From contig CAYLHS010000001.1 of assembly GCA_964383535.1 (NCBI GenBank), positions 20,026-84,025 of the forward strand: a stretch of DNA of 64,000 nucleotides, written 5' to 3'. Of this stretch, positions 5,197-39,424 are shown in pieces. Every line of letters begins with the position of its first letter. Position 1 is the stretch's first letter. The notes under the pieces were generated by a model. The model was not told the origin of the DNA. It did no database searches and was given only the letters and a program-made list of their open reading frames with translations. Source of the stretch: an uncultured Acidimicrobiia bacterium. GTDB taxonomy: Bacteria > Actinomycetota > Acidimicrobiia > Spongiisociales > UBA4744. A program made the position numbers and the translations under genes.

Positions 5197-5433
5197 GAGC
5201 CAATCGTATCCCTCTCGCTGACGGGCTACATGATCCGAGAGTGAACGACAACACCATGAGAACACCTGCTGCCGTGTATTCATCGCCGTTCCTTGTCTTG
5301 ACCGATGATCGAGGTGCCACCGCCAGTGCGACGGCGCGTGCGCTGTTCCGACGGCGTGTTTGGCGACCGAGCCGTGTCTCCCGGGCAAGGGACCCACATG
5401 GGCGGATATCCTCGAAGACGACAAGGAGGCGGA

Positions 5434-6849: not shown

Positions 6850-6860
6850 GAGGCAGCGCG

Positions 6861-9553: not shown

Positions 9554-9643
9554 GGTCCGTTCCACGGCTACATCGGCTGCGTCGGTGGGAACAGCCCCCT
9601 CCGGCGTCGGCCTTCAGCCTCGCGAGGGGAGGAAATGGCCGCC

Positions 9644-11131: not shown

Positions 11132-11159
11132 CGTGTTCCTCCGTTTCGCTCCAGACTAT

Positions 11160-12428: not shown

Positions 12429-12508
12429 GGCCGGAACGCTACTCAATTTCCTCGCACCGCACCGACCAGGCCGTCGGTCGCTGACTAACGTGCAATTGGG
12501 AGGACCGA

Positions 12509-14125
12509 ATGGCGGATCTGATACTGCGAGGCGGAACCATCTACACGATGGACGCAGCGCGGAGTCGGGGGACGTCCGTACTGATTCGTGATGGGCGAAT
12601 CCACGCCATCGGCCATCGTGACGCGTTCGGCCAAGGCCCCTCCACCGAGGTGATAGACCTCCACGGACGATTCGTCGTGCCGGGTTTCCAGGACGCCCAC
12701 ATTCACCCACCTTCGGGTGGTCTGGGACTCATGCGCTGCAACATGCACGACGACAAGACGAGGGAGGAGCATCTCGAGACGATCGGACGCTACGCCGCCG
12801 CGCATCCCGAGGAGGCGTGGATTCTGGGCGGCGGCTGGGCGATGGACGCGTTTCCCGGCGGCACACCAACACGCGAAGAACTCGACGCCATCATCCCCGA
12901 TCGGCCCGTGTTCCTCGTCAACAGGGATGGGCATGGAGCGTGGGTGAACTCGGTCGCACTCAAGCTCGCGGGAGTGGACCGGTCCACCCCCGATCCGGTC
13001 GACGGACGGATCGAACGCGATGCGTTGGGTGAGCCGGCCGGCACCCTCCAGGAGGGAGCGATGGAGCTGGTGTATCGAGTCCTTCCCGGAGACACCGAGG
13101 AAACGTACCTACGAGGCCTGAAGGTGGCGCAGGAGTATCTCCTGTCGCTCGGGATCACGGCATGGCAGGACGCCGAGGTGACTCCCCACACCGAGATCGC
13201 GTATCGGCGGCTCGCCGGCGAGGGCGAGCTCCACGCACACGTGGTCGGCGCCCTCTGGTGGGAACGTTCCGAAGGCGAGGAGCAGATCGAGAGACTCATC
13301 GAGCGCCGCTCAGAGGGGTTCGCTCCCGGGTTTCGACCGACAAGCGTCAAGATGATGCTCGACGGCGTGTTCGAGAACTTCACGGCTTCGATGATCGACC
13401 CTTATCTCGACGCAGCCGGTGCCTCTAGTGGCAACACCGGCATCGACTTCATCGATCGCGAGATGCTTCGACGGTACGTGACGATCCTGGACGCCGAGGG
13501 CTTTCAAGTCCACTTCCACGCCATTGGCGATAGTGCAGTCAGAAGCGCGCTCGACGCAGTCGAGTCGGCCCGCCGCGCCAACGGCTGGAACGACCACCGG
13601 CATCACATCTCACACATCCAGGTGGTCCACCCCGACGACATCCCACGCTTCCGCAGACTCGGTGTGATCGCCAACGGGCAACCGTTCTGGGCGTGCATGG
13701 ACGGGTACCAGAGCGAGCTGACGATCCCGTTCCTCGGCCCCGACAGAAGTGCAGGCCAGTACCCCTTCGGGTCGCTGCTCCGCAATGGGGCATCCCTGGC
13801 GTTTGGCAGCGACTGGTCGGTCTCGACGCCTGACCCGCTCCTGGAGATCGAAACGGCCGTCACGCGAATCTCGCCCGATGATCGAACCATGCCGGTGTTC
13901 TATCCCGATGAACGCATCGGGCTGCACGAAGCACTCGCGGCGTTCACGATCGGATCGGCCTACGCCAACCACCTCGAGGACCGGACCGGATCGATCGAGC
14001 CCGGGAAGCTCGCCGACCTCGTCGTCCTCGACAGGGACCCTTTCGAAGCGGAACCCATCGGCGAGACGAGAGTCGACCTCACCATGATCGAAGGCAAGAT
14101 CGTCTACACACGGGAGGGCTCATGA
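12509..14125 (+). CDS. amidohydrolase-3 family metal-dependent hydrolase
   Basis: GGGAGGA ribosome-binding site; N-term ILRGGTIYTMD...VVPGFQDAHIHP (HxH metal ligands); 538 aa. Confidence 0.7.
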   Translation: MADLILRGGTIYTMDAARSRGTSVLIRDGRIHAIGHRDAFGQGPSTEVIDLHGRFVVPGFQDAHIHPPSGGLGLMRCNMHDDKTREEHLETIGRYAAAHPEEAWILGGGWAMDAFPGGTPTREELDAIIPDRPVFLVNRDGHGAWVNSVALKLAGVDRSTPDPVDGRIERDALGEPAGTLQEGAMELVYRVLPGDTEETYLRGLKVAQEYLLSLGITAWQDAEVTPHTEIAYRRLAGEGELHAHVVGALWWERSEGEEQIERLIERRSEGFAPGFRPTSVKMMLDGVFENFTASMIDPYLDAAGASSGNTGIDFIDREMLRRYVTILDAEGFQVHFHAIGDSAVRSALDAVESARRANGWNDHRHHISHIQVVHPDDIPRFRRLGVIANGQPFWACMDGYQSELTIPFLGPDRSAGQYPFGSLLRNGASLAFGSDWSVSTPDPLLEIETAVTRISPDDRTMPVFYPDERIGLHEALAAFTIGSAYANHLEDRTGSIEPGKLADLVVLDRDPFEAEPIGETRVDLTMIEGKIVYTREGS

Positions 14126-14141
14126 AGCGGCGGGGGCCAAG

Positions 14142-15209
14142 GTGACGTCGGCAGCGGTGGAGCTGTCGGGGATCTCCAAGCGTTTCGGTGACGTGGAGGC
14201 GGTCAAGGATCTGGATCTCGCCATCGGTGATGGAGAGTTCTTCTCCCTGTTGGGACCATCAGGGTGTGGCAAGACCACGACGCTGCGCATGATCGCAGGT
14301 CTCGAGTTCCCCACCGAGGGGAGCATCCGCGTGTTCGGCGAGGAGATGGGTCTTCGACCTCCGAACAAGCGCCCCATCAACACGGTGTTCCAGTCATACG
14401 CCCTCTTCCCTCACATGACGGTTGCTGAGAACATCGGGTTCGGGCTCGAGATGCGCGGCGTCGAGCGTTCGGAGATCGACGGCAGGGTGAACGAGGCGGT
14501 GCAGCTCGTGCGTCTCGGCGGCATGGAACGGCGCAAACCGACTCAGCTCTCCGGCGGTCAGCAGCAGAGGGTGGCGCTTGCGCGTGCGCTGGTGAACCGT
14601 CCGAAGGTGCTGCTGCTCGACGAGCCGCTCGGCGCGCTCGACCTGAAACTCCGCCAGGCGATGCAGACAGAGTTGAAGGATCTTCAGGAGCGGGTCGGCA
14701 TCTCGTTCGTCTACGTCACCCACGACCAGGAGGAAGCGTTGACGATGTCCGATCGGATCGGCGTCATGAACGAGGGACTTCTCCTCCAGGTCGGCTCGCC
14801 GGAGCAGATCTACGAACACCCAGGGACGAGGTTCGTTGCGGACTTCATCGGAGAGACGGCGTTCGTCGATGGTGTCGTCGCGGAATCTGGTGTGGTGCGT
14901 CTGCCGAACGGGAGCACCGTCCGGACTCGCACCGACGTTCCTTCGGGCACTGCGGTGACGCTGGCTCTGCGTCCCGAACGGCTGTACCTCGCACCCTCCG
15001 ACGAGCCGGCACCTGCGTCGGTCAATCAGATCGAAGGGACCGTGCGCCGTCGCGTGTACCTGGGGAACGCCAACTTCTACGAGGTCGACGTCGGCTTCGA
15101 CACACTGAAGGTTCGGCTCGAGAACACCATCAGCGCCGCGACCTACGCACCCGGCGATGCGGTGGTCGTGCAGTGGCAGCCCGGATCGTCGAAGGCCCTG
15201 TCGGAATGA
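14142..15209 (+). CDS. potA: spermidine/putrescine ABC transporter ATP-binding protein
   Basis: Walker A GPSGCGKTT, ABC signature LSGGQQQRV, Walker B LLLDEPLGALD, and a C-terminal TOBE-like domain. Confidence 0.8.
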   Translation: MTSAAVELSGISKRFGDVEAVKDLDLAIGDGEFFSLLGPSGCGKTTTLRMIAGLEFPTEGSIRVFGEEMGLRPPNKRPINTVFQSYALFPHMTVAENIGFGLEMRGVERSEIDGRVNEAVQLVRLGGMERRKPTQLSGGQQQRVALARALVNRPKVLLLDEPLGALDLKLRQAMQTELKDLQERVGISFVYVTHDQEEALTMSDRIGVMNEGLLLQVGSPEQIYEHPGTRFVADFIGETAFVDGVVAESGVVRLPNGSTVRTRTDVPSGTAVTLALRPERLYLAPSDEPAPASVNQIEGTVRRRVYLGNANFYEVDVGFDTLKVRLENTISAATYAPGDAVVVQWQPGSSKALSE

Positions 15210-16090
15210 ACACGGAAGTGACGCCCGCCTCGCCCGATCTCGAACGGGCCGCGGAACGAGCGGAACGTCGAAGAGGCTTCCGGCTCGGACTACCCGGGTT
15301 CGTCTACCTGGTGATCTTCTTCGCGGTTCCTCTCGCGATGGTGTTCGTGTACTCCTTCGCGACGCGCAGCTCGACAGGCAAGACCCTGCTCCAGGACTGG
15401 AACCTCAACTCGTACGAAAGGCTCGCCGACCCGCTGGTGAGGCAGATCGCCTGGCGATCTCTTTGGTTGGCGCTCCTGGCCACCGTCATCTGCCTGATCC
15501 TCGCCTACCCGTTCGCCTACTTCATCGCGACCAGGCGGCCGGCCGTGCGCAACGCGCTCCTCGTTCTCGTGATGATCCCGTTCTGGTCGAACTTCCTGGT
15601 CAGGACGTACGCCTGGAGGGTGCTGTTGGGTTCCGACGGTCCAGTCTCACAGCTGACACAACTCCTCGGACTGGGTGACACTCGCATCCTGTTCACGCCA
15701 CTCGCCATCCTGATCGGTCTCGTGTATGGGTTCCTGCCGTTCATGGTGCTTCCGCTGTACGCGGCGATCGAGCGGATCGACTGGAGCCTCGTCGAAGCGG
15801 CGCGCGACCTCTACGCGAGCGGATGGCAAGCCTTCCGCAACGTCACGTTGCCGCTGAGCCGCCCAGGGGTGATCGCCGGATCCATCCTCGTGTTCATCCC
15901 GAGCCTGGGTGCGTACGTGACGCCGGAAATCCTCGGCGGAGCAAAGACGACGCTTCTGGGAAGCTACATCGTCCAGCAGTTCCTCGCCGCCCGGAACTGG
16001 CCGTTCGGATCGGCGCTCTCGTTCGCGGTCATGGCGGTCATGCTTGTGGCGACCCTCATCTACTTCAGAGAAGGAGGGCGGACACTGTGA
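15206..16090 (+). CDS. potB: spermidine/putrescine ABC transporter permease
   Basis: ATGA overlap with the potA stop; six predicted TM helices; EAA-like loop. Confidence 0.75.
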   Translation: MNTEVTPASPDLERAAERAERRRGFRLGLPGFVYLVIFFAVPLAMVFVYSFATRSSTGKTLLQDWNLNSYERLADPLVRQIAWRSLWLALLATVICLILAYPFAYFIATRRPAVRNALLVLVMIPFWSNFLVRTYAWRVLLGSDGPVSQLTQLLGLGDTRILFTPLAILIGLVYGFLPFMVLPLYAAIERIDWSLVEAARDLYASGWQAFRNVTLPLSRPGVIAGSILVFIPSLGAYVTPEILGGAKTTLLGSYIVQQFLAARNWPFGSALSFAVMAVMLVATLIYFREGGRTL

Positions 16091-16941
16091 ACTCCGGGAC
16101 CAGACCGAAGGGTCTCGTCGATCGACTCCTTGCCGCCAACTCCTGGATCGTCTACGCGTTCTTCTACGCCCCGATCTTCGTGCTGGTCTTCTTCTCCTTC
16201 AACGACAACCGCAACGTGGGCGTGTGGACGCATGCCAGCTTCCGTTGGTATGGGGAACTCGCCCAGAGCCAGGACATCATCCGATCCCTCAAGAACTCGC
16301 TGATCGTGGCCGCCGTATCCACCATCGTGTCGACCGTGATCGGCACCGCCGCAGCACTCTCGATGGAACGGTTCCGTTACCGGGGTCAGCGTACGTACGA
16401 CGCCCTGCTGTACCTGCCGATCATCATCCCCGATGTGACGATGGCAGTGATGATGCTGCTCTTCTTCGTCCAGGCGTTCGGGATCCTGAACGGCGCGTTC
16501 GGAACACGGATCGAACTCGGGCTGGGATCCATCTCTCTTGCCCACATTGCATTCAATATCTCGTTCGTCGCGGTGGTGGTGCGCGCGCGTCTGGCCCAAA
16601 TGGACTCGAGTCTGGAAGAGGCGGCACGCGACCTGTACGCGAGCCGCTGGCAGACCTTCAGGAAGGTGACCCTTCCGTTGATCATGCCGGGGGTGGCAGG
16701 CGGCGCACTCCTGGCACTCACCATGTCGCTCGACGACGTGGTGGTCACCAGCTTCGTGACGGGTCCAGGGTCGACGACACTGCCCGTATACGTGTTCGGC
16801 CTGGTGAAGAGGGGTGTGACGCCGCTGGTCAATGCCGTATCGACGCTCATGCTGGTAGCGTCGATGTTGTTGGTCGCAGGCTCGCTCTTTTTCCAGAGGA
16901 GTAGATCGACCAGTCATGGAGGAGGGACTGTTGAAACCTAG
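16087..16941 (+). CDS. potC: spermidine/putrescine ABC transporter permease
   Basis: GTGA overlap with the potB stop; EEAARDLYASRWQTFRKVTLP is a near-repeat of the corresponding PotB loop. Confidence 0.75.
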   Translation: MNSGTRPKGLVDRLLAANSWIVYAFFYAPIFVLVFFSFNDNRNVGVWTHASFRWYGELAQSQDIIRSLKNSLIVAAVSTIVSTVIGTAAALSMERFRYRGQRTYDALLYLPIIIPDVTMAVMMLLFFVQAFGILNGAFGTRIELGLGSISLAHIAFNISFVAVVVRARLAQMDSSLEEAARDLYASRWQTFRKVTLPLIMPGVAGGALLALTMSLDDVVVTSFVTGPGSTTLPVYVFGLVKRGVTPLVNAVSTLMLVASMLLVAGSLFFQRSRSTSHGGGTVET

Positions 16942-18061
16942 AACCACAATCATGACCGCCCTGCTGGTGGTGCTGCTCATGGTGATGATGTCGGCATGCA
17001 GCAGTACGGCCGAAACCACAACTACGGAGGCGGCACAGACGACGACCACCGCCGCAGAAGCGATGGGATGTTCGCCTGATCAAGTGGACGGAGACTTGAA
17101 CTTCTACAACTGGTCGGACTACATCGACCCGGACCTGATCTCCGCATTCCAAGATCAGTACGGCGTCACGGTCACCCAGGACTTCTATGAGTCGAACGAG
17201 GAGATGCTTGCCAAGATCCAAGCCGGTGTGCACTACGACTTGATCGTCCCATCCGACTACATGGTCGGGATCATGGTCGACGACGGCGATCTGATGAAGC
17301 TCGACAAGGCTGCGCTGACGAACCTGGGCAACCTGGATCCCGAGTTCACCGCCATGCCGTTCGATCCGACGGGCGACTATTCGGTGCCGTACCAGTGGGG
17401 TACGACAGGGCTCGGCGTCGATCTGGCGGTCGTCGGCGAGGATCACCCCTACTCGTGGGGGATCATCTTCGACCCTGCGATGAATCAGGGCCATCAGGTG
17501 TCCATGCTCAACGATGCCCGCGAAACGATGGGGGCGGCCCTCAAGTACCTGGGCTACTCCTTGAACAGCACGAGCCTCGACGAGCTTCAGCAGGCGGCCG
17601 ACCTCATCAAGTCGGCTAAGGACGTCATCGTCACGTTCGATTCGGACAACTACGACGAGAACCTGGTCAACGGTGAGGTGTCGATTTCGCACGGGTACAA
17701 CGGGAACTTCTTCACCGCGTTCGACGCCGCCGACAATCCGGACCAGTTCGAGTACTTCATGCCCGAGGAGGGCGGCACGATCTGGGTGGACAACATGGCG
17801 ATCCCCGCCAATGTCGACCATCCGTGCACGGCGCTCACGTTCATCAACTTCCTACTGGACGCCCAGAACGGAGCACAACTGACGAACTACAACTACTACG
17901 CGAGCCCGAACGCGGCGGCCAAGCAGTACATCAATCCCGAGATCCTCTCGGACACTGCTGTGTACCCGGACGAGGCGACGATGAAGCGCCTCGAGTTCAT
18001 CGAGGACACGGGCGACTTCGAGATCAACTACACGGACTACTTCAATCAGGCAAAGAGCTGA
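16916..18061 (+). CDS. potD: spermidine/putrescine ABC transporter substrate-binding lipoprotein
   Basis: Signal peptide with lipobox MMSAC; PotD/PotF-like periplasmic binding fold. The true start may be a TTG a few codons downstream of the GGAGGAGG ribosome-binding site. Confidence 0.7.
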   Translation: MEEGLLKPRTTIMTALLVVLLMVMMSACSSTAETTTTEAAQTTTTAAEAMGCSPDQVDGDLNFYNWSDYIDPDLISAFQDQYGVTVTQDFYESNEEMLAKIQAGVHYDLIVPSDYMVGIMVDDGDLMKLDKAALTNLGNLDPEFTAMPFDPTGDYSVPYQWGTTGLGVDLAVVGEDHPYSWGIIFDPAMNQGHQVSMLNDARETMGAALKYLGYSLNSTSLDELQQAADLIKSAKDVIVTFDSDNYDENLVNGEVSISHGYNGNFFTAFDAADNPDQFEYFMPEEGGTIWVDNMAIPANVDHPCTALTFINFLLDAQNGAQLTNYNYYASPNAAAKQYINPEILSDTAVYPDEATMKRLEFIEDTGDFEINYTDYFNQAKS

Positions 18062-18065
18062 TCGA

Positions 18066-18096
18066 GTGAAGGGGGTGGCTCCGCCACCCCCTTCAC
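18066..18096. terminator. GC-rich perfect hairpin between convergent potD and an ALDH gene (candidate bidirectional terminator)
   Basis: GTGAAGGGGGTGG-ctccg-CCACCCCCTTCAC: a 13-bp perfect stem with a 5-nt loop in the 31-nt gap between convergent genes; no U-tract. Confidence 0.45.
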
Positions 18097-19532
18097 CGCA
18101 CGTTGTCGAGGTCCAGCACCACGGTCTGAAGGTCGGTGAACTCCTCGATTCGACCTCGGCCCCAGCCGGTCTCGGTTCCAGCGGCACCGCCGAAGGGTTG
18201 GAACGTCTCCCAGAAGTCCGTCGAGTCGTTCACCACGACCGTCCCGGAGCGAACTCTGTCCGCATACCAGAACGCCTTCGACAGGCTCGAAGTGAACACG
18301 GCCGCCTGGAGACCGAGATTCGATCGATTGGCGATGGCCACGGCCTCTTCGTCGTCGCGAACGGTGATGATCGGCAGCACCGGCCCGAACGACTCCTCGG
18401 AGAACAGGGAGCTTTCCGGAGAGACGCCGTCGACGACGGTGAAGTGGTAGTAGAGATCTGTGGGGAAGCCTTCCGCCCGCCCGCCGCCGACGAGGACATC
18501 GGCGCCGCGGGCCATCGCGTCTGCGATCTGCCGATCCATCTTCGCCGCCGTCGGCTCGTTGTTGAGGGGCCCCATCGTGGTAGCCGAATCGAACGGATCT
18601 CCAAGACGCACGGCATCCGCTGCCTTGAGGGCCAGTGCGACGAATTCCTCGTGGACATCGTCGAGCACGATCACGCGTTCGGTCGCGCAGCACACCTGCC
18701 CGGCGTTGTAGTACGCCCCGTAGACGGCGAGCGACGCCGCAGCATCCAGGTTGGCGTCGCCGGTCACGATCGTAGGGCCGTTGCCCGACATCTCCATGAT
18801 CGAACGCTTGATGCCCATCGAAGAGATGATCTTCTTGCCGGTTGCCGTCGAACCGGTGAAACCCACGGCGTCGACTCCGCCGGAGGAGACGAGCTGCGCT
18901 CCGATCGACGGTCCACCGGGGATGATCGACACGGCCCCTTTCGGAACACCCGCCTCGTCGAAGGCCTCCGCCAACTTGAGGAGGGACCAGGATGTGAACT
19001 CCGGTGGTTTCACGATGAGTGCGTTACCGGTTGCGAGTCCGGGGCCGACATACTCGAGGGGGATCGTGACAGGGAAGTTCCATGGCGTGATCACGGCCCA
19101 GACACCGATCGGGCGTCTGAATGTGAACATGCGCTTGCTTCGTGACGACGTCGGGATGACCTCACCACCGAGACGCTTGGCGTCCTCGGCCGCATTCAAG
19201 AAGTACTGGTTGGCTTCCTGAATGTCCTCGAGGGACTCGGCGTGGAACGGCTTGCCCTGCTCCAGAGTCTGGATCCGGGCGATCTCGTCCACCATCGGCT
19301 CGATCGCTGCTGCGATGCGCGTGCACAGATCGGCTCGCTCGAACGCCGACCAATGGCGCATCTCGTCGGTCGCCTCACGCGCTGCCCGCACCGCCACGTC
19401 GAGATCGGCACGCGATGCGAGCGGTACGTTCGCGATGTGTTCGCCCGTCACGGGACTGTACAACTCATGCACCTGCTCGCCGGTTCCCTCGGTCCACTCG
19501 CCGGCGAGGTAGAGCTTCAAATCCTGCGCCAT
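18093..19532 (-). CDS. aldehyde dehydrogenase
   Basis: Start reset to MAQDLKLYLAGEW, with a GGAGG ribosome-binding site 7 nt upstream; ALDH motifs ELGGKDP-like and GQVCCA. Confidence 0.85.
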   Translation of the reverse strand: MAQDLKLYLAGEWTEGTGEQVHELYSPVTGEHIANVPLASRADLDVAVRAAREATDEMRHWSAFERADLCTRIAAAIEPMVDEIARIQTLEQGKPFHAESLEDIQEANQYFLNAAEDAKRLGGEVIPTSSRSKRMFTFRRPIGVWAVITPWNFPVTIPLEYVGPGLATGNALIVKPPEFTSWSLLKLAEAFDEAGVPKGAVSIIPGGPSIGAQLVSSGGVDAVGFTGSTATGKKIISSMGIKRSIMEMSGNGPTIVTGDANLDAAASLAVYGAYYNAGQVCCATERVIVLDDVHEEFVALALKAADAVRLGDPFDSATTMGPLNNEPTAAKMDRQIADAMARGADVLVGGGRAEGFPTDLYYHFTVVDGVSPESSLFSEESFGPVLPIITVRDDEEAVAIANRSNLGLQAAVFTSSLSKAFWYADRVRSGTVVVNDSTDFWETFQPFGGAAGTETGWGRGRIEEFTDLQTVVLDLDNVR

Positions 19533-19597
19533 GACGCTGCCTCCTTCGTGCAAACCATGCTAGGGACGGTCGCCGTGCCGGGTTCGCGCCGGGTAGC

Positions 19598-21082
19598 ATG
19601 GCGGGTGGTGAGAATGTGGCGGACCGCCTCCAACTGATAGACGGATCATTCGAAGCCGGAGCCGCTTCTCCATTGCCTGTCGTCGATCCGGCGACAGGCA
19701 GAACGATCGACCAGGTTTCGACCGCCTCTCGCGACCAGGTCGACCGCGCGGTCACATCCGCGAGGCGGGCACAGGCGCTCTGGTGGAGCGCCACCCAGCA
19801 GGAACGAAGCGACGCGATGCACGCCGTCGCCGCCGAGATCAGAAGACGAACCGACGACATCGCCGACATCGTCACGAGGGAGACCGGACGCCCCTACTCG
19901 AGGAATCTCCTCTATGTGGACATGATCGCCAATCTCTTCAGACAGTACGGAGAGCTTGCGCGTGTCCACGGCGGACGGGTGGCCCCCTCCAACGACCCGG
20001 GGCAGCTCTCACTCGTCCTTCGGGTTCCCTACGGCGTCGTCGCAACCCTCGTTCCCTGGAACTACCCGCTGTTGCTGCTCGCATTCAAGGTCGCACCGGC
20101 CCTCGCAACCGGCAACACGGTCGTCATCAAGCCGGCGTCGGAGACGGTCCTGACGACGCTCGTTCTCGCCGAGGTGTTCCAAGCGACGACTCCTCCAGGT
20201 GTCGTCAATGTCGTCGCCGGCAGAGGGTCGACGGTCGGGGAGCAACTCGTGTCGCATCCTGGAACCGACATGGTGGCCTTCACCGGTTCCACCGAGGTGG
20301 GCGTCCGCATCGGAGAAGTGTGCGCCCGCATGACCAAGCCCGCTCACCTCGAACTCGGCGGGAAGGACCCGGCCATCGTGTTTGGAGACACGGACCCGGA
20401 GCTGGCCGCCAGAGCCGTCGTGTGGGCGGCGTTCCTGAACGCAGGTCAAGTGTGCACGTCCACCGAGCGTGTCTACGTCCACGACAGCCTCTACGACAGC
20501 TTCCTGGAGGCCGTCGTCGAGACCACCGCGGGGCTACGCGTGGGTGATCCGTTCGATTCGATGACCCAGATAGGTCCGATGCGCAACGAGTCCGCACGAA
20601 TGAAAGTGCTCGAGCAGCTGAAGGACGCGGAACAGGCCGGAGCGAAGATCGTGGTGGGAGGAGACGTCCCCAAGGGGTCGACCGGCTTCTACCTGCGCCC
20701 GACGGTCGTCGTCGACGTCACCCACGACATGTCGCTCATGCAGGAGGAGACGTTCGGACCCGTGCTTCCCATCATGCGCTTCAGAGAACCCGACGAAGCG
20801 TTCGCCCTTGCCGCCGACACACCGTACGGGCTCGGGGCGAGTATTTACACTCAGGATGCCGGTCTCGTGGGACGCGCCTACGAGCAACTCCAGGTCGGAA
20901 CGGTCTGGGTGAACGATCCAGTCGTCGACAATCTCGCCGCCCCGTTCGGAGGTATGCGAGCCTCAGGGAACGCCAGGGAGCTGGGCTTGGAGGGTATGGA
21001 GGCGTTTACCGCTGCCCGGCATGTTCACTGGAACCTCGATCTGCAAGCCAAGCCCTGGTGGTACGGAAAGGACAACTCATGA
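19598..21082 (+). CDS. aldehyde dehydrogenase
   Basis: LELGGKDP and GQVCTS motifs; divergent from the previous ALDH. Confidence 0.85.
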   Translation: MAGGENVADRLQLIDGSFEAGAASPLPVVDPATGRTIDQVSTASRDQVDRAVTSARRAQALWWSATQQERSDAMHAVAAEIRRRTDDIADIVTRETGRPYSRNLLYVDMIANLFRQYGELARVHGGRVAPSNDPGQLSLVLRVPYGVVATLVPWNYPLLLLAFKVAPALATGNTVVIKPASETVLTTLVLAEVFQATTPPGVVNVVAGRGSTVGEQLVSHPGTDMVAFTGSTEVGVRIGEVCARMTKPAHLELGGKDPAIVFGDTDPELAARAVVWAAFLNAGQVCTSTERVYVHDSLYDSFLEAVVETTAGLRVGDPFDSMTQIGPMRNESARMKVLEQLKDAEQAGAKIVVGGDVPKGSTGFYLRPTVVVDVTHDMSLMQEETFGPVLPIMRFREPDEAFALAADTPYGLGASIYTQDAGLVGRAYEQLQVGTVWVNDPVVDNLAAPFGGMRASGNARELGLEGMEAFTAARHVHWNLDLQAKPWWYGKDNS

Positions 21083-22386
21083 GTCTGCAAGGTGAGAAGA
21101 CCGCCGCCTGGTTCGCACGGGCACGTGCGAATCTCGTGAACGGTGTGTCGAGCGGCTTTCGCTACTGGGGTGAGGACGACTCGCTCGTCATCGACCATGG
21201 TGAGGGAGCCTACGTCGTCGACATGGACGGCCGGCGCTATGTCGACTACCAATGTGGATTCGGCCCGATCGTTCTGGGCCACGGGTATCCAGCTGTTGCC
21301 GCTGCCGTCGCCGACGCAGCAGCGTCCGGGACGACGTTCGCAATGACCTCGCGTCGGGAGGTCGAGGCGGCCGAGAAGTTCCGTGCCGCGGTGCCGTGGG
21401 TGGAGGCCCTCAGATTCACGAACACGGGAACGGAAGCAACGATGCACGCGGTTCGACTGGCCAGAGGTTTCACTGGTCGTGACCTCATCTTGAAGTTCGA
21501 GGGTCAGTACCACGGCGTCCACGACTATGTGATGTTCTCGACGGCGAGTGCACCGCCTTCGGCACTTGGATCCCGATACCGTCCGATTCCGGTCCAGAGT
21601 TCGTCCGGCATCCCGGACGCGATTCGCTCGACGATCAGGACGCTTCCGTTCAACGATCTGGAGGCGGTACAGAGGTTGTTCCGGGACATCGGTCACAGGA
21701 TCGCGGCGATCATCGTCGAGCCGATGCTCGGCAATGCATTCGGCATCATGCCCCAAGAGGGCTACCTGCAAGGGTTGAGAGACGTTTGCGACGAATACGG
21801 CTCGGTCCTGATCTTCGATGAAGTGAAAACCGGTTTCAGGGTGGCACTGGGAGGAGCCCAGGAACTCTTCGGAGTCACGCCCGACCTCGGGACGTATGCA
21901 AAAGCGATGGGCAACGGGTTCCCTGTCGCCGCGATCGCCGGTCGCGGAGAGGTGATCTGGGGATGGGCGAAGGGTGGTATTGCTCAGGCGGGCACGTACT
22001 CGGGCAACGGTGTTGCCGCTGCGGCCGCCGCGGCGACCATCGACGTTCTGTCGACGGGTGAACCATACGAACGGATGCACAAGTCCGGCACCGCACTCAT
22101 GCAAGGCCTGAAGACAATCTGTGCCGACAAGGGCGTACCGGCCCACATCGTCGGAGTGCCTGCCATGTTCTCGGTCTTCTTCGGGGATGAGTCCCCGAAG
22201 GACTTCAGGGATGCATCCAATCACGACGAGGACCTCTACGCGACGGTCGTGCGCGGCATGATCCAGCGGGGAGTGATGCCCGTCGACGACGCGAAGGAAC
22301 CATGGTTCCTGTGCGCCGCGCACGGAGACGAGGAAGTAGCCGTATCGCTGACCGCCTTCGAAGAGGCGCTCGGCGAGGCGATCTAA
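21079..22386 (+). CDS. class III aminotransferase (GSA-aminomutase-like fold)
   Basis: ATGA overlap with the upstream ALDH stop; DEVKTGFRV and PLP lysine in YAKAMGNGFP. Confidence 0.8.
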   Translation: MSLQGEKTAAWFARARANLVNGVSSGFRYWGEDDSLVIDHGEGAYVVDMDGRRYVDYQCGFGPIVLGHGYPAVAAAVADAAASGTTFAMTSRREVEAAEKFRAAVPWVEALRFTNTGTEATMHAVRLARGFTGRDLILKFEGQYHGVHDYVMFSTASAPPSALGSRYRPIPVQSSSGIPDAIRSTIRTLPFNDLEAVQRLFRDIGHRIAAIIVEPMLGNAFGIMPQEGYLQGLRDVCDEYGSVLIFDEVKTGFRVALGGAQELFGVTPDLGTYAKAMGNGFPVAAIAGRGEVIWGWAKGGIAQAGTYSGNGVAAAAAAATIDVLSTGEPYERMHKSGTALMQGLKTICADKGVPAHIVGVPAMFSVFFGDESPKDFRDASNHDEDLYATVVRGMIQRGVMPVDDAKEPWFLCAAHGDEEVAVSLTAFEEALGEAI

Positions 22387-22395
22387 GGAGACATC

Positions 22396-23550
22396 ATGCA
22401 CATTGCGCTTCTCGGCGCAGGCATCATCGGCCGTGTCGTCGCCGGCGATCTGGCGACCTGGAACACCCCCGATGAGGTGACCATCGGCGATCTGGACGGT
22501 GAACGGGCGTCTCTCGTTGCCAAGGAACTCGGGTTCGACCATATGCCCGTCGACGTCGCGGACGAACCGTCACTCGACGCCTTCCTCGAGGGAACGGACG
22601 TCGTCATCAACGCCGCCCAATACGGAGTCAACCTCGCGGTGATGGAGGGAGCCCTCCGTGCGGGCGCCCACTATCTCGACCTTGGCGGGCTCTTCCACAC
22701 GACCCGCAAGCAGTTGCTGCTGGACAACCGGTTTCGCGAAGCCGGCCTGACGGCGGTGCTCGGTATCGGATCGTGCCCAGGGATAGCGAACGTGCACGCC
22801 GGTGACCTGGCGACGCGGATGGACACCGTCCGGTCGGTGAAGATCTACAACGGCGCGACCGTCGATCCGTCGGACACGCTCAAATGGCCGTACTCGCTGT
22901 GGACGATTTTCGACGAGATAACCGAGCGGCCGATGGTGTTCCGAGAAGGCGCGTTCGTCGACGTGGAACCCCTGTCCGAAGAGGAGATGTTCCCGTTCAG
23001 GGAACCGATCGGAAATGCCAAGACTCACCTGTCGCTGCACTCGGAGGTGGCCACCATCCCGGTGAGCCTCGCCGGCAAGGGCATCGAGGCATGCGAGTTC
23101 AAGATCCGGTTCTTCGGTTTCAGTGAAGGAGCTCTCCGCAAACTGCAGTTCCTCGCCTCACTCGGGCTCGCATCGAAAGAACCACGCCCGGACGGGACGG
23201 TCCCTCGCAAGCTGCTCGTCGACCTGCTCGAAGAACTGCGACCTGAGCCTCCCAAACACCCCGGATTCAAGGACATCGCGACGGTCGCCGAGGGCACCCG
23301 AGACGGAGCACCGATCACGCTGCGCATCGACTCGACGGCATGGCCGTCGAAGGAACTGGGTGTGGCCGGAGGAACGATGGTGGTGGCGTCACCGGCGGCC
23401 ATCGTCGGAAGATGGCTCGCGAGTGGCGAACTCTCACACCCAGGCGTCCATCCACCGGAGACGTCGATACCACCGCAGCCGTTCTACGAAGCGCTCGCAG
23501 TGCGGGGAGTGGCGACGACACTCCAGGAGACGACGACACTGGCCGGCTAG
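22396..23550 (+). CDS. saccharopine-dehydrogenase-like NAD(P)-binding oxidoreductase
   Basis: N-terminal Rossmann MHIALLGAGIIGRVVAGDL followed by a domain typical of saccharopine/carboxynorspermidine dehydrogenase-family proteins. Confidence 0.6.
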   Translation: MHIALLGAGIIGRVVAGDLATWNTPDEVTIGDLDGERASLVAKELGFDHMPVDVADEPSLDAFLEGTDVVINAAQYGVNLAVMEGALRAGAHYLDLGGLFHTTRKQLLLDNRFREAGLTAVLGIGSCPGIANVHAGDLATRMDTVRSVKIYNGATVDPSDTLKWPYSLWTIFDEITERPMVFREGAFVDVEPLSEEEMFPFREPIGNAKTHLSLHSEVATIPVSLAGKGIEACEFKIRFFGFSEGALRKLQFLASLGLASKEPRPDGTVPRKLLVDLLEELRPEPPKHPGFKDIATVAEGTRDGAPITLRIDSTAWPSKELGVAGGTMVVASPAAIVGRWLASGELSHPGVHPPETSIPPQPFYEALAVRGVATTLQETTTLAG

Positions 23551-32935: not shown

Positions 32936-33032
32936 GGCGGGTAGCCTAGCGGTGCACTGGCAGGGATTTCATAGTGACACGCCCGGACGAATTCGCTGAT
33001 GTGTCGTGCGCTCGGGTAGCCTCCATTGTGTC

Positions 33033-33326
33033 ATGGGTGATCTACGGGAGCTGCCGGAGCAGGTCAGTGAGCTGATCGATCTCTCCAAGGAGTACCTGCG
33101 CCAGGAAACCATCGAGCCGGCAAAGAGACTCGGACGCGTGTTCGGGATGGGGTTCGCCGCCTCGGTGTTGTTTTCGCTAGGAGCGGTGCTCCTGTCGGTC
33201 GCAGGAATGCGGATCCTGGTTCGAGTTCTGCCGGAAGGCGAGCTGTGGAGCGCGCTCGGTGTGTTCATCTCGTTCATCGTGCTTGCAGGAGCGGCCGGTC
33301 TGATCATGTGGAGGGCAAATCGCTGA
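33033..33326 (+). CDS. holin-X-like small membrane protein (phage-holin-3_6-like; family assignment is from memory)
   Basis: N-terminal amphipathic segment (LRELPEQVSELIDLSKEYLRQE) followed by two TM helices; alternative GTG start at 33006. Confidence 0.4.
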   Translation: MGDLRELPEQVSELIDLSKEYLRQETIEPAKRLGRVFGMGFAASVLFSLGAVLLSVAGMRILVRVLPEGELWSALGVFISFIVLAGAAGLIMWRANR

Positions 33327-33517
33327 TGGTGGAGCGCGCCGACATCGAAGCCAAGGCACGTGAGATCGAGCAATCGCTCATGGAGACGAAGGAAAGCGTT
33401 CAGGACAAGAGCGTGCTCATCGCGCTCGCCGTGATCGCGGTCGTCGGCATTGCCTTCTTGATCGGAAGACGTCGAGGCAAACAGGCCAGGGCAATCGTGA
33501 AGGTCTACAGGTCCTGA
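33326..33517 (+). CDS. DUF3618-like small protein (coiled-coil + C-terminal TM anchor + RRRGK)
   Basis: ATG overlaps the upstream stop (TGATG); MVERADIEAKAREIEQSLMETKES...LIALAVIAVVGIAFLIGRRRGKQ. Confidence 0.4.
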   Translation: MVERADIEAKAREIEQSLMETKESVQDKSVLIALAVIAVVGIAFLIGRRRGKQARAIVKVYRS

Positions 33518-33849
33518 CCTTCGAATCCAATACGGATCGTTTCGCCGGGTTTCAAGCGACGCTGGTAGACGACGCGGGAAGGTCGGGGAGTGCGGAGGAA
33601 CCGGAACGCCAGTAGCGCCGCTCCCACCAGTACCAGCGTGGCGTCACCGGTTCGCAAGCCCCGAAACAGGCTCTTGACTGCGGATCCGCCGAGCTGCATG
33701 TGACCAGGCTAGCCGCGGGGAAGGAGCCAGAAAGCGCGTAAAGTACCTGCCATGCGGAACGAAACGATGAAGAAGGTCATTGTCTGGGTCATCGTCCTCG
33801 GAATGGTGCTCTCTCTCGCCCTGGGCGTCTTGGCCCTGGTGTTCTCGTC

Positions 33850-34044
33850 ATGAACGTCATCCTTCGACATCCCCGGCGAGAGGTGGCGGTCGATGCCCCG
33901 ATCAGCGTCGATCGGATGCTGAAGGCACTAGACATCGTGCCGGAGACGGTGCTGGTGATCCGAGGAGCGGACCTTCTGACTCGAGACGCAATGCTCGAAC
34001 CCGACGACACGGTCGAGGTGCGTCCTGTCATCTCGGGGGGCTGA
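33850..34044 (+). CDS. ThiS/MoaD-fold sulfur-carrier protein with C-terminal Gly-Gly (TtuB/CysO-like)
   Basis: 64 aa ending ...TVEVRPVISGG*; stop overlaps the start of the PP-loop thiolase gene (ATGA). Confidence 0.6.
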   Translation: MNVILRHPRREVAVDAPISVDRMLKALDIVPETVLVIRGADLLTRDAMLEPDDTVEVRPVISGG

Positions 34045-34931
34045 TGCGCTGCCGGGTCTGCAAGGAGAAGGCCGCGATCGAGGTACGACGCCACAACGCC
34101 GCGTTCTGTCGCGACCACTTCATCGAGCACGTGGTACGGCAGGTGGAGCGGACCATCCATGACTTCGACATGTTCGATCGCTCGGATCGCTTGCTCATCG
34201 GGGTGTCGGGCGGGAAGGACAGCCTGGCGATCTGGGATATTCTGCACCGGCTCGGCTATCGATGTGAGGGCGTCTATCTCGACCTCGGCATTGACGGCTA
34301 CTCGGCCGACAGTCGCACCTTCATCGAACGCTTCGTGAAGGAACGAGACTTGATCCTTCGGGTCGTCGACCTCCGTGAACGATACGGCTTCACGATTCCC
34401 CAGGCGGCGGAGTCGACGAGACGAAATCCGTGCTCTGCATGCGGCCTCTCCAAGCGGTACATCCTCAACGAGGAGGCGCTGACGGGCGGCTATGACGCCC
34501 TCGTGATGGGCCACAATCTCGATGATGAAGCGGCGACTCTGTTCTCGAACGTGCTCAATTGGAACACCGAGTACCTGGCCCGGCAGAAGGCAGTCCTTCC
34601 CGCTTCCGGTGGTCTGGTCAAGAAGGTGAAACCTCTAGTCCGAGTCGCGGAGAGAGAAACCGCGGCGTATGCCGTTCTCTCGGGCATCGATTACGAAGTC
34701 GACGAGTGCCCGCTGGTTGCCGGCAACACCGTCAACAGGATGAAGGAATGGATGGCGCTGCTCGAACACAAGTCGCCAGGTGTCACCCAGCACTTCCTTG
34801 GTGGCTTCTACAACCTGGACACTTTCCACACCCCGACCCCGGATCTGCATTCGTGCGAGTCCTGCGGACGGCCGACGACTGCGACGATCTGCGCCTTCTG
34901 CCGGCTGCAAGAGCGATCGGTTCGACGATGA
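34044..34931 (+). CDS. TtuA/NcsA-family PP-loop tRNA thiolase (2-thiouridine-54-type)
   Basis: N-terminal zinc finger CRVCKEK...AAFCRDH, PP-loop SGGKDS, central CSAC and C-terminal CESCGR...CAFC cysteine clusters. Confidence 0.7.
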   Translation: MRCRVCKEKAAIEVRRHNAAFCRDHFIEHVVRQVERTIHDFDMFDRSDRLLIGVSGGKDSLAIWDILHRLGYRCEGVYLDLGIDGYSADSRTFIERFVKERDLILRVVDLRERYGFTIPQAAESTRRNPCSACGLSKRYILNEEALTGGYDALVMGHNLDDEAATLFSNVLNWNTEYLARQKAVLPASGGLVKKVKPLVRVAERETAAYAVLSGIDYEVDECPLVAGNTVNRMKEWMALLEHKSPGVTQHFLGGFYNLDTFHTPTPDLHSCESCGRPTTATICAFCRLQERSVRR

Positions 34932-35698
34932 CGTTCACTTCGGGCGACCACTGCCTACTGGTGGATCTCCGGGGACGCAGATATCTGGTCACGCTCAAGG
35001 AAGGGGGTGAGTTCCATTCCCATCTCGGCGCCCTCCCACACGATGACGTGATCGGGGTCCAGGAGGGAACGCTGATCGCAACCACGACTGGCAGCCGGCT
35101 GCTGGCCATTCGCCCGCGGTACGTCGACTATGTCCTCAAGATGCGACGCGGAGCCCAGGTCGTGTACCCCAAGGACGTCGGACCGATCCTCGTCTACGGA
35201 GACATCGGTCCAGGCGAAACGGTGCTCGAGGCGGGTACCGGTTCCGGCGCGCTCACGATCGCTCTGGTGAGGGCGGTGGGCGCCACCGGGAAGGTGATCA
35301 GTGTCGAAACACGCGAAGACCACGCGGCGCACGCCCGCAGAACCATCGACGCGTTCTTCGGGGCCCTCCCGGTCAACCTGGACCTGCGAATCGGGTCGAT
35401 AGAAGACGTCGGAGCGTCCGTGTCGCCAACCCGAATGGTGCTCGATCTGCCCGAACCCTGGCATGTGGCCGAGGGCGGCGGTGGTCTACAGCCCGGGGGC
35501 GTATTCGTCGCCTACCTACCGACCGTTCCGCAAGTTCAGACGCTGGTCGAGACGATGCGGGCGACGGGGGCGTACCAGATGATCGAGACGTTCGAGACCC
35601 TCCATCGGTCCTGGAACATCGAAGGAAGGTCGGTGCGACCCGATCACCGTATGGTTGGCCACACCGGGTTCATCGTTGTCGGTCGTCGAACACGTTGA
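34928..35698 (+). CDS. trmI: tRNA (adenine58-N1)-methyltransferase
   Basis: ATGA overlap with the upstream stop; SAM motif VLEAGTGSGALT; architecture as in M. tuberculosis Rv2118c, which also neighbours the mpa locus. Confidence 0.8.
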   Translation: MTFTSGDHCLLVDLRGRRYLVTLKEGGEFHSHLGALPHDDVIGVQEGTLIATTTGSRLLAIRPRYVDYVLKMRRGAQVVYPKDVGPILVYGDIGPGETVLEAGTGSGALTIALVRAVGATGKVISVETREDHAAHARRTIDAFFGALPVNLDLRIGSIEDVGASVSPTRMVLDLPEPWHVAEGGGGLQPGGVFVAYLPTVPQVQTLVETMRATGAYQMIETFETLHRSWNIEGRSVRPDHRMVGHTGFIVVGRRTR

Positions 35699-35714: not shown

Positions 35715-35960
35715 TCAGGGTTCGATGAAGATGCACTCGCCGGGGCACTCCTCCGCCGACTCGATCACCATCTCCTCTTGCCCATCTGGCACCACGGCCA
35801 GCCCCTGAGCCCCTTCGGGGTTGCCCTCGGATGCGGCGAAGATCTTGTCGCCCTCCTTGACGTAGGCCAGACCGTCGTCCAGTAGGACGAAGACATCGGG
35901 TGCGATCTCCTCGCAGAGGCCGTCGCCCGTGCAGAGATCTTGGTCGATCCAAACCTTCAT
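35715..35960 (-). CDS. small ferredoxin (single Fe-S cluster, actinobacterial 7-kDa type)
   Basis: Start reset to MKVWIDQDLCTGDGLCEE...CPGECIFIE, with a GGAGA ribosome-binding site 10 nt upstream. Confidence 0.7.
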   Translation of the reverse strand: MKVWIDQDLCTGDGLCEEIAPDVFVLLDDGLAYVKEGDKIFAASEGNPEGAQGLAVVPDGQEEMVIESAEECPGECIFIEP

Positions 35961-37756: not shown

Positions 37757-37763
37757 GGTTCCC

Positions 37764-39248
37764 ATGAGTTCCGGCCGCAATAGCGAGGATCTCGCGGTAC
37801 TTGGCACCGAAACCGAGTTCGGCATCACCATCGAGGGGCGAACCCAGGACAGTGCGGTGCTCTCGTCAGGGTTGGTCGTCCAATCTTCGCCGGACGGTGT
37901 TCCCGTGCGGTGGTCGCTCACAGAAGAATCGCCCGGCCGGGATGCCCGGGGAAGGCGGTACACGGTCCCCGTGGATGCTGATCCGGAAGCGCTCAACGCG
38001 TTGCTTCCGAACGGGGCCCGGCTCTACGTAGACCACGCCCACCCCGAGTACTCGACACCTGAGTGCTTGGGTGCACGCCAGGCCGCCCTGTACGACAAAG
38101 CAGGCGAGTTGGCCCTCGCGCGTGCCGCCCGCAACACGCAGCGTCTCCTCCCGTCGGGAGAGAGGGTGTCGATCTACAAGAACAACAGCGACGGCAAGGG
38201 CAACTCGTACGGCGCTCACGAGAACTACCTGGTCGACCGATCGGTACCGTTCTCGGACATCATCGACTACCTCACGACATTCCTCGTGACCCGCCAGATC
38301 TTCACTGGCTCCGGAAAGGTCGGCTCAGAGAATGGCCGGCCTACGGTCCCGTACCAGATCAGTCAACGAGCCGACTTCTTCGAAACGCGCGTCGGACTCG
38401 AGACGACGATTCGCCGTCCGATCATCAACACCCGCGACGAACCGCACAGCGACCCAGATCGGTTCCGCAGGCTCCACGTGATCATCGGAGACGCGAATCG
38501 CTCCGAACCTCAAGTCTTTCTCAAGCTCGGAGCGACGGCACTGATGCTTGCCGCCATCCAAGATGGAGCGCTTCCCGACAGGCTGGAACTCGACGATCCC
38601 GTCTCGGCCACATGGGAGGTCAGCCACGACCGTGGATTGAGCCACCGGCTTCGACTTGCCGACGGGTCGTCGGCGACCGCTCTCGAGCTTCAGTGGCAGT
38701 ACCTCGACTGGCTGAGCAAGTACGCAGAAGCCGGGTCCAGGCCGGACGAGGGAGCGCTCGATGTGTGGCGAGGAGTCCTCGAGGACTTGGAGATCGACCC
38801 CCTACGCACCGCAGACCGTCTCGACTGGACGGCCAAACTGCGCATCATGGAGGCCTACCAAGCGCGCGAGGGCATAGGGTGGGATCATGCAAGGGTCCGC
38901 GCACTCGACCTGCAATACCACGACGTGGACCCTGCCAAGGGTCTCTACGACCGCCTCGTGGCAAGAGGATCCATCGAGCGGCTCTTCGACGACCACCAGG
39001 TCGCGATGGCACTGGAGGAACCGCCAGGCGAAACGAGGGCGTATTTTCGTGGCAGGTGTGTGCGGAAATTCGGATCCTCCATCATGTCCGCCAACTGGGA
39101 TTCGCTGGTCTTCGACACGGGTGAAACCACATACAAGCGAGTGCCTATGATGGATCCCCTGAGAGGCGACGCCGATCGAGTGGCCGATGTGATCGATACA
39201 TCGGAGGACGTCATGTCGCTGATCGAAGCACTAGGAAGCGAACAATGA
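37764..39248 (+). CDS. dop: Pup deamidase/depupylase
   Basis: GTETEFG N-terminus, carboxylate-amine ligase fold with the Dop-specific insertion; 494 aa; stop overlaps the pup ATG. Confidence 0.9.
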   Translation: MSSGRNSEDLAVLGTETEFGITIEGRTQDSAVLSSGLVVQSSPDGVPVRWSLTEESPGRDARGRRYTVPVDADPEALNALLPNGARLYVDHAHPEYSTPECLGARQAALYDKAGELALARAARNTQRLLPSGERVSIYKNNSDGKGNSYGAHENYLVDRSVPFSDIIDYLTTFLVTRQIFTGSGKVGSENGRPTVPYQISQRADFFETRVGLETTIRRPIINTRDEPHSDPDRFRRLHVIIGDANRSEPQVFLKLGATALMLAAIQDGALPDRLELDDPVSATWEVSHDRGLSHRLRLADGSSATALELQWQYLDWLSKYAEAGSRPDEGALDVWRGVLEDLEIDPLRTADRLDWTAKLRIMEAYQAREGIGWDHARVRALDLQYHDVDPAKGLYDRLVARGSIERLFDDHQVAMALEEPPGETRAYFRGRCVRKFGSSIMSANWDSLVFDTGETTYKRVPMMDPLRGDADRVADVIDTSEDVMSLIEALGSEQ

Positions 39249-39424
39249 AAGAACAGACCCGCAAGCCTCATCCCGAGGAAGAACAACCTCCTGAGCAGGA
39301 CATCCCGGCGGCGCCTCAGGCCGACACCGGCGACCTGGACGATCTCCTCGACGAGATCGACGACGTTCTGGAAGAGAACGCAGAGGAGTTCGTCAGGAAC
39401 TACGTACAGAAGGGCGGAGAGTGA
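39245..39424 (+). CDS. pup: prokaryotic ubiquitin-like protein Pup (C-terminal GGE)
   Basis: 59 aa: MKEQTRKPHPEEEQPP...DDLLDEIDDVLEENAEEFVRNYVQKGGE*; ATGA overlap with the dop stop and GTGA overlap with the prcB start. Not in the ORF track (under 60 aa). Confidence 0.85.
   Translation: MKEQTRKPHPEEEQPPEQDIPAAPQADTGDLDDLLDEIDDVLEENAEEFVRNYVQKGGE

Follow-up and report, generated by a model that had tools for sequence, protein, structure and literature searches.

We analyzed a 64,000-nucleotide stretch of a contig of an uncultured Acidimicrobiia bacterium (hereinafter, the window), in which four closely packed genes encode, in order, a membrane miniprotein of 33 amino acids (aa), the sulfur carrier protein TtuB, the PP-loop thiolase TtuA, and the tRNA methyltransferase TrmI. 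These four genes very probably make up one operon devoted to the modification of the T-loop (elbow) of tRNA. It represents the known TtuA/TtuB pathway in a new operon arrangement, which is kept across the Acidimicrobiia. The arrangement is not a product of chance: 78 of the 80 related loci show it as well, and each of the proteins has strong homologues. The coordinates of the operon and of the neighboring features are listed in Table 1.

Table 1. The miniprotein-ttuB-ttuA-trmI operon and its surroundings; positions are those of the window.
Feature	Position	Strand	Product and remarks
Miniprotein gene	33752-33853	+	33 aa, MRNETMKKVIVWVIVLGMVLSLALGVLALVFSS
ttuB	33850-34044	+	64 aa; C-terminal end ...VISGG, then stop
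ttuA	34044-34931	+	295 aa; [4Fe-4S]-type tRNA U54 2-sulfurtransferase with a PP-loop and N- and C-terminal zinc fingers
trmI	34928-35698	+	256 aa; tRNA (adenine58-N1)-methyltransferase
Candidate -10 hexamer TAAAGT	33739..33744	+	putative, read from the sequence; leaderless transcript
Divergent 64-aa open reading frame (ORF)	33505-33699	-	upstream neighbor of the operon
Ferredoxin gene	about 35715-35960	-	Pfam Fer4_15; convergent with trmI
arc	start 36062		364 bp beyond the end of trmI
dop	37761-39248		present in the window
pup	39245-39424		about 3.5 kb from the operon

A sequence-only reading of this DNA had proposed a translationally coupled operon of four genes, and all four ORFs were present on the plus strand at the proposed positions. 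The miniprotein gene overlaps ttuB, and ttuA overlaps trmI, by 4 nt (ATGA), whereas at the ttuB/ttuA junction, for which ATGA had also been proposed, the actual sequence is TGATG with an overlap of 1 nt. With stop and start codons overlapping in this way, the genes are packed for the translational coupling that the same reading had suggested. No evident Shine-Dalgarno sequences of their own could be read in front of ttuB and trmI, and translation of these two genes would depend on coupling. The G-run in the Gly-Gly codons of ttuB (GGG GGC), located 4-10 nt 5' of the ATG of ttuA, could be the ribosome-binding site of the latter. The operon is separated from the divergent 64-aa ORF by 52 bp of intergenic DNA. 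On the plus strand of the window, a sigma-70 consensus scan revealed no promoter, and a terminator scan revealed no terminator.

The 295-aa protein matched TtuA far better than any of its paralogues, in agreement with the TtuA-type PP-loop enzyme expected from the sequence-only reading. In a search against the sequences of solved structures (PDB), the scores were 276 bits for Thermus thermophilus TtuA and 247 bits for the TtuA of Pyrococcus (PH0300), versus 101 bits for an NcsA-type U34 thiolase and 27 bits for TilS. Among the NCBIfam profiles, TtuA reached 268.7 bits, followed by NcsA (129.5), TtcA (81.2), and the TilS N-domain (46.2), so that both comparisons placed the enzyme with TtuA rather than with TtcA or TilS. 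The Pfam domains TtuA_LIM_N (40.5 bits) and ATP_bind_3 (38.4 bits) passed their cut-offs of 27. BLASTP alignment with Thermus TtuA showed 46% identity across 293 aa. The PP-loop motif SGGKDS occupies residues 55-60, the N-terminal zinc finger is formed by C3, C6, C22, and H25, and the C-terminal one by C271, C274, C283, and C286. The [4Fe-4S] ligands C130, C133, and C222, together with K137, are at the same positions as in Thermus TtuA. All zinc-finger, PP-loop, Fe-S, and K137 residues were invariant across 18 homologues.

The target of thiolation might nevertheless be other than U54, namely, the wobble U34 (as for NcsA/Ctu1), C32 (as for TtcA), or a small-molecule precursor. A PP-loop and an Fe-S site of three cysteines are common to the TtcA/TtuA/NcsA superfamily, the lower NcsA and TtcA scores are still significant, and the assignment of the target in Acidimicrobiia relies on sequence. 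Such an alternative target is highly improbable, given that TtuA scored two to three times any alternative in two independent libraries, and that the similarity to Thermus TtuA extends over the entire protein and takes in the two zinc fingers as well as the LIM-type N-terminal domain specific to TtuA. Moreover, the best match of the carrier is TtuB, not SAMP2, ThiS, or MoaD, and the linkage to trmI, whose product modifies this loop at a distance of four nucleotides, is kept in 78 loci.

Three lines of evidence, namely, sequence, profile, and predicted fold, mark the 64-aa protein as TtuB-like. Its best solved relative was Thermus TtuB, aligned over the full length (E=9e-8). A profile made from 30 homologues encoded in the related loci matched TtuB with 69 bits (E=2.5e-18) and SAMP2 with 43 bits, while MoaD and ThiS proteins remained in the range of 14-17 bits (17 for MoaD and 15 for ThiS). 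The single sequence scored 19.4 bits against Pfam ThiS, under the gathering score of 22.5. The single-sequence AlphaFold (AF2) model was of medium confidence, with a predicted local distance difference test (pLDDT) value of 70.5. In a Foldseek search with this model, the top five matches were TtuB chains (template modeling score 0.70, about 40% identity), and further beta-grasp proteins ranked after them. Residues S62, G63, and G64 were invariant in the 30 homologues. Sequence, profile, and predicted beta-grasp fold agree with the Gly-Gly-terminated carrier of ThiS fold that had been claimed, and the Foldseek ranking spoke against a small ORF lacking this fold.

The window TtuB stops exactly at Gly-Gly. 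Extra residues after Gly-Gly (1-120, mostly 1-3) were found in 34 of 81 TtuB homologues; examples of tailed proteins are L008:5801-6004, L028:5347-5547, L032:5450-6004, L071:5780-6004, and L075:5699-6004 (here and below, L numbers designate related loci). The tail of the L032 protein consists of 120 aa and is repetitive. The tailed homologues would need C-terminal processing before use as sulfur carriers.

The product of the last gene contained both the GCD14 (PF08704, 70.8 bits) and TrmI-like_N (PF14801, 60.1 bits) domains with scores above the Pfam cut-offs, and its best solved relative was Mycobacterium tuberculosis Rv2118c with 236 bits, followed by Thermus TrmI with 165 bits. The two domains and the Rv2118c match bear out its earlier naming as trmI.

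For the analysis of gene order, one genome per species was taken, yielding 80 loci with TtuA relatives of 48-88% identity. Almost all of them belonged to metagenome-assembled genomes of Acidimicrobiia, and neighbors were counted by tblastn with the window proteins. The ttuB gene was located directly upstream of ttuA in all 80 loci, and trmI directly downstream of ttuA in 78; the two exceptions were loci titled Clostridia and Dehalococcoidia, where ttuB-ttuA was accompanied by neither trmI nor arc. Within the DNA examined, arc was present further downstream in 68 loci. Of the 12 loci without it, two were these non-actinobacterial ones, and for the rest the DNA examined was too short. The shared synteny comprised a major facilitator superfamily transporter, a holin-like protein, two small ORFs, the operon, the ferredoxin gene, and arc. 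The overlap of ttuA and trmI was limited to the closest relatives, while elsewhere these genes were separated by gaps of about 10-90 nt. In the closest relative, L067, the identities of TtuA and Arc were 88% and 93%, respectively.

From the gene identities, conserved residues, and operon conservation observed, we infer the following chemistry and order of steps. TrmI would methylate A58 to m1A58. An unlinked E1 of the MoeZ/TtuC type, together with a cysteine desulfurase, would adenylate and thiocarboxylate the C-terminal Gly-Gly of TtuB. TtuA would then adenylate C2 of U54 or m5U54 and, by means of its [4Fe-4S] cluster, transfer to it the sulfur of TtuB-COSH, with s2U54 or m5s2U54 as the product. 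The TtuB/TtuC/TtuA pathway has been described (PMC3980101), and Sulfolobus is a known case of s2U54 that is not methylated (PMC7912444). For the Thermus TtuA, m1A58 acts as a positive determinant that speeds up thiolation, according to Shigi (2006b) as summarized in PMC6418473 and PMC7912444; co-transcription and overlapping codons would therefore deliver the enzymes together. On the same summaries, the pairing of A58 methylation with U54 thiolation put forward in the sequence-only reading is biochemically sensible. As to expression, the miniprotein gene would be the first cistron of a probably leaderless mRNA, and ribosomes finishing it would reinitiate on ttuB, a gene with no Shine-Dalgarno sequence of its own.

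Pfam scans of approximately 63 ORFs across the 64-kb window found no ThiF/MoeB E1, JAMM protease, rhodanese, or cysteine desulfurase, and the lack of an E1 had been noted before. Because of this lack, TtuB would have to be charged in trans. We take MoeZ to be the obvious E1 candidate in Actinobacteria. In Thermus, the E1 TtuC is encoded by an unlinked gene and is common to thiamin and molybdopterin synthesis (PMC3980101).

Several points weigh against the proposed T-loop pathway. No E1, rhodanese, desulfurase, or U54 methylase is encoded in the window, which leaves the pathway incomplete from sequence alone, and the window lacks tRNA genes whose T-loop determinants could be inspected. Nothing found ties the action of the miniprotein to TtuB or TtuA. 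The score of TtuA was below that of the NCBIfam equivalog NF049949 (268.7 versus 450 bits), a Pyrococcus-type model. We read this shortfall as a property of a model tuned to archaeal TtuA and not as an argument against TtuA membership. The closer relative of the window protein is the bacterial TtuA of Thermus. Finally, the thiolated nucleoside (m5s2U54, or s2T54) has been described as a thermophile trait (PMC3980101, PMC7912444, PMC5372739), yet close relatives of the window locus come from Danish soil and sediment.

The genomes of this Danish origin (MFD prefix; PMC12313526) include that of the closest relative, L067. The isolate names of other relatives suggest soil catalogues, sand samples, and Microthrixaceae, and a few may indicate hot springs. 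Sources as varied as these speak against a restriction of the pathway to thermophiles within the Acidimicrobiia. The IVYWREL fraction of 45 confident window ORFs (0.415) corresponds to a growth optimum of about 54°C, as given by an estimator judged unreliable at 64% G+C; the value may hint at moderate thermophily or reflect the amino acid bias of high G+C content.

Downstream of the operon, the genes follow in the order arc, dop, pup, prcB, prcA, pafA, pafB, pafC, tatA, tatC, and a DSHCT-domain helicase gene (helY-like by position), which is the canonical actinobacterial order. The operon had been placed 2 kb from the Pup locus. The start of arc is 364 bp beyond trmI, and pup itself is about 3.5 kb away. 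The proximity to Pup is explained by the trmI-arc order being usual in actinobacteria. In M. tuberculosis, whose genome is not known to contain ttuBA, trmI (Rv2118c) is located three genes away from mpa/arc (Rv2115c). The simplest reading is that ttuB-ttuA and the miniprotein gene were added upstream of a trmI already located beside arc. No publication on the adjacency of trmI and mpa or on TtuA in Actinobacteria was found. The Pup protein of the window ends in ...KGGE, not GGQ, and therefore deamidation by Dop would not be needed before ligation.

The position beside the Pup genes raises the question of whether TtuB is mainly, or also, a protein modifier working with the Pup-proteasome system. 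Conjugates of TtuB with lysines of TtuA and TtuC, K137 among them, are documented in Thermus (PMC3980101), and such conjugation could occur here. The lysine K137 is kept, although this would be expected anyway from its location at the catalytic center. The operon ends shortly before arc, and the tails past Gly-Gly in 34 of 81 relatives would need a processing peptidase, like ubiquitin-like precursors; however, no E1, JAMM, or E2/E3-like gene was found in the window, and no conjugation machinery (E1, JAMM, rhodanese) was detected in the inserts between trmI and arc of the relatives. The adjacency is accounted for by trmI, the cluster order of the window being that of M. tuberculosis, and the two loci from other phyla hold ttuB-ttuA without trmI or arc. 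A modifier function linked to the proteasome is thus very unlikely, and the attractive suggestion that a second ubiquitin-like modifier cooperates with Pup found no support in the gene content of the window or of these inserts. We retain sulfur transfer to U54 as the probable function of TtuB.

The finding of a conserved miniprotein gene at the head of the operon was not anticipated in the sequence-only reading, which regarded this ORF as a leader peptide. Equivalents were found in 69 of the 80 related loci, representing 64 distinct peptides of 30-37 aa with the consensus MRNxRFVxxVVWxVVIGMVLxL followed by a variable hydrophobic tail. The miniprotein consists of a short polar N-terminal tail and one transmembrane helix. 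In most relatives the N-terminal tail is basic, whereas that of the window copy has no net charge (R2, K7, K8, E4). The overlap of the stop codon with the ttuB start amounts to 4 nt in about 60 loci and to 1 nt in six, and only in two loci are the ORFs separated by a gap. At codon positions 1/2/3, pairwise differences were 0.50/0.34/0.58 and G+C contents 0.58/0.34/0.79, and the gene caller of the Joint Genome Institute (JGI) reported a 33-aa gene on three independent contigs. Judging by the codon pattern, the conservation, and the JGI calls, the ORF is coding, and the peptide appears to be under selection.

The candidate -10 hexamer ends with its T at -8 relative to the A of the miniprotein start codon. 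A TANNNT motif ending at -7 to -9 was present in 22 of 70 loci and a Shine-Dalgarno-like motif in 19 of 70, and in none of the 70 did the two occur together. This distribution fits a real start codon, which would be reached via either a leaderless transcript or a ribosome-binding site. An Rfam scan at E<=1 detected no RNA element. A leader-peptide attenuator was rejected: the stop codon of the miniprotein ORF overlaps the ttuB start by 4 nt, leaving no spacer and hence no room for alternative hairpins, and there was no plus-strand terminator, Rfam match, or run of regulatory codons.

The 33-aa ORF could also be a translational starter that loads ribosomes onto ttuB, with the peptide itself being functionless. 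The overlap of its stop codon with the beginning of ttuB (about 66 of 70 loci), the lack of a Shine-Dalgarno sequence in front of ttuB, and the absence of the ORF from the Microthrixaceae/Iamiaceae clade, where ttuB-ttuA-trmI remains, are in line with this explanation, and the peptide would be short enough to fit wholly in the ribosomal exit tunnel at termination. On the other side, the length of 30-37 aa and the topology persist in the 64 variants, down to about 25%-30% identity; N3, the basic residue 5, W12, G17-M18, and L20 are kept, and conservation is highest at the second position of the codons. We therefore regard a functionless starter as doubtful, while giving it more weight than the other alternatives considered here, and favor a functional membrane miniprotein.

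An exhaustive phmmer search with the 33-aa protein returned three close relatives only and no new contexts or fusions. Prli42 (NF033880) was the only curated family touched. The window copy scored 18.3 bits versus the cut-off of 27.5, and 22 of the 64 family members matched this NCBIfam model at E<=0.01 (best 2.2e-7). Reciprocally, Listeria Prli42, taken from the supplement of PMC9840623, scored 3.6 bits against the miniprotein profile, a value equalled or beaten by 4%-7% of shuffles. With a sub-threshold window copy and a non-significant reciprocal match, homology to Prli42 is not claimed, and the resemblance is treated as one of architecture. A speculative and rather unlikely scenario is that the miniprotein works specifically with the TtuB/TtuA/TrmI module, for example as a Prli42-like membrane tether or sensor linking T-loop thiolation to the envelope or redox state, that U54 thiolation in the largely non-thermophilic Acidimicrobiia serves a purpose other than stabilization against heat, and that some peptidase matures the TtuB precursors with C-terminal extensions.

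In the Microthrixaceae/Iamiaceae, another small membrane protein is encoded in place of the miniprotein, on the same strand as the operon, its gene ending 24-25 nt before ttuB. It is a homologue of the product of the divergent 64-aa ORF of the window. Members of this family are 64-72 aa long and have one hydrophobic segment, a VVYxxxLKPGE motif, and no Pfam match. They always adjoin the operon, while their orientation flips among lineages; plus-strand members are L071:5473-5754 and L016:5471-5608. Further upstream, positions 33006-33517 of the window encode a holin-X-like protein (PF07332) and an overlapping small ORF of no known family, both kept upstream of the operon in most loci.

On the opposite side of the operon, the single-cluster ferredoxin showed unusual conservation, being 100% identical across 78 aa in L001 and L067, while the identities of the neighboring proteins in these loci were about 86%-93%; the gene is located beside arc in most loci. 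Inserts between trmI and ferredoxin or arc were found at L016:7740-9008, L019:4106-5356, L037:6246-7535, L045:7748-8989, and L071:7731-8894. They encode a SerB-like ACT-HAD phosphatase, a pyridoxal phosphate-dependent enzyme of Cys/Met metabolism, a LuxR protein, a short-chain dehydrogenase (SDR), and a CvpA-trypsin protein. The CvpA-trypsin fusion follows trmI directly, on the same strand, in Microthrixaceae. Apart from the operon, region 4030-23550 of the window resembles an island for amine/polyamine catabolism, with genes for five aldehyde dehydrogenase paralogues, two class-III aminotransferases, two amidohydrolases, a flavin adenine dinucleotide-dependent oxidoreductase, a saccharopine-dehydrogenase-like protein, and an ATP-binding cassette importer with a TOBE domain.

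The dependency of TtuA on TrmI, known biochemically from Thermus, is here reflected in the gene order across an actinobacterial class, which gives it independent evolutionary support. TtuA and TtuB, usually regarded as an adaptation of thermophiles, are widespread in environmental Acidimicrobiia, raising the question of the role of 2-thiolation at moderate temperature. The conserved, coupled membrane miniprotein is a concrete object for study beside a well-understood pathway.

Among the known systems, the miniprotein is most comparable with Prli42, the stressosome tether of Firmicutes, which likewise has about 31 aa, starts with Met-x-Asn, and carries basic residues at about positions 4-8 followed by a single transmembrane helix. 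It differs in belonging to another phylum and in having no stressosome genes nearby. TrmI shares the TrmI-like_N plus GCD14 architecture with both Rv2118c and Thermus TrmI, and resembles Rv2118c also in its location at the edge of the arc-dop-pup-prcBA cluster. Unlike the M. tuberculosis and Thermus genes, trmI of this lineage closes an operon shared with ttuBA. The archaeal SAMP2/NcsA and eukaryotic Urm1/Ncs6 systems also combine a beta-grasp Gly-Gly carrier with a PP-loop Fe-S thiolase from the superfamily of TtuA, but the window proteins score clearly lower against them than against TtuA/TtuB. These systems target the anticodon (wobble U34), and for their carriers a role as protein modifiers with a link to proteasomes is documented, a link not seen here.

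The closest counterpart is the TtuA/TtuB system of Thermus thermophilus, which produces m5s2U54 with the participation of TtuC (E1), TtuD (rhodanese), and IscS/SufS. The window TtuA shares with the Thermus enzyme 46% of its residues over the full length, as well as both zinc fingers, the PP-loop motif, the cysteines of the Fe-S site (three in number), and K137. For TtuB, the identity is about 40%, and the length and the Gly-Gly end are the same. In both cases, ttuB and ttuA are adjacent and the E1 is unlinked. The Acidimicrobiia system differs in that overlapping codons, in the window, link ttuB-ttuA to trmI, that a conserved membrane miniprotein gene stands in front of them, that about a third of the relatives have TtuB residues beyond Gly-Gly, and that the host lineage is Acidimicrobiia, of which many relatives come from temperate soil and sediment instead of hot habitats.

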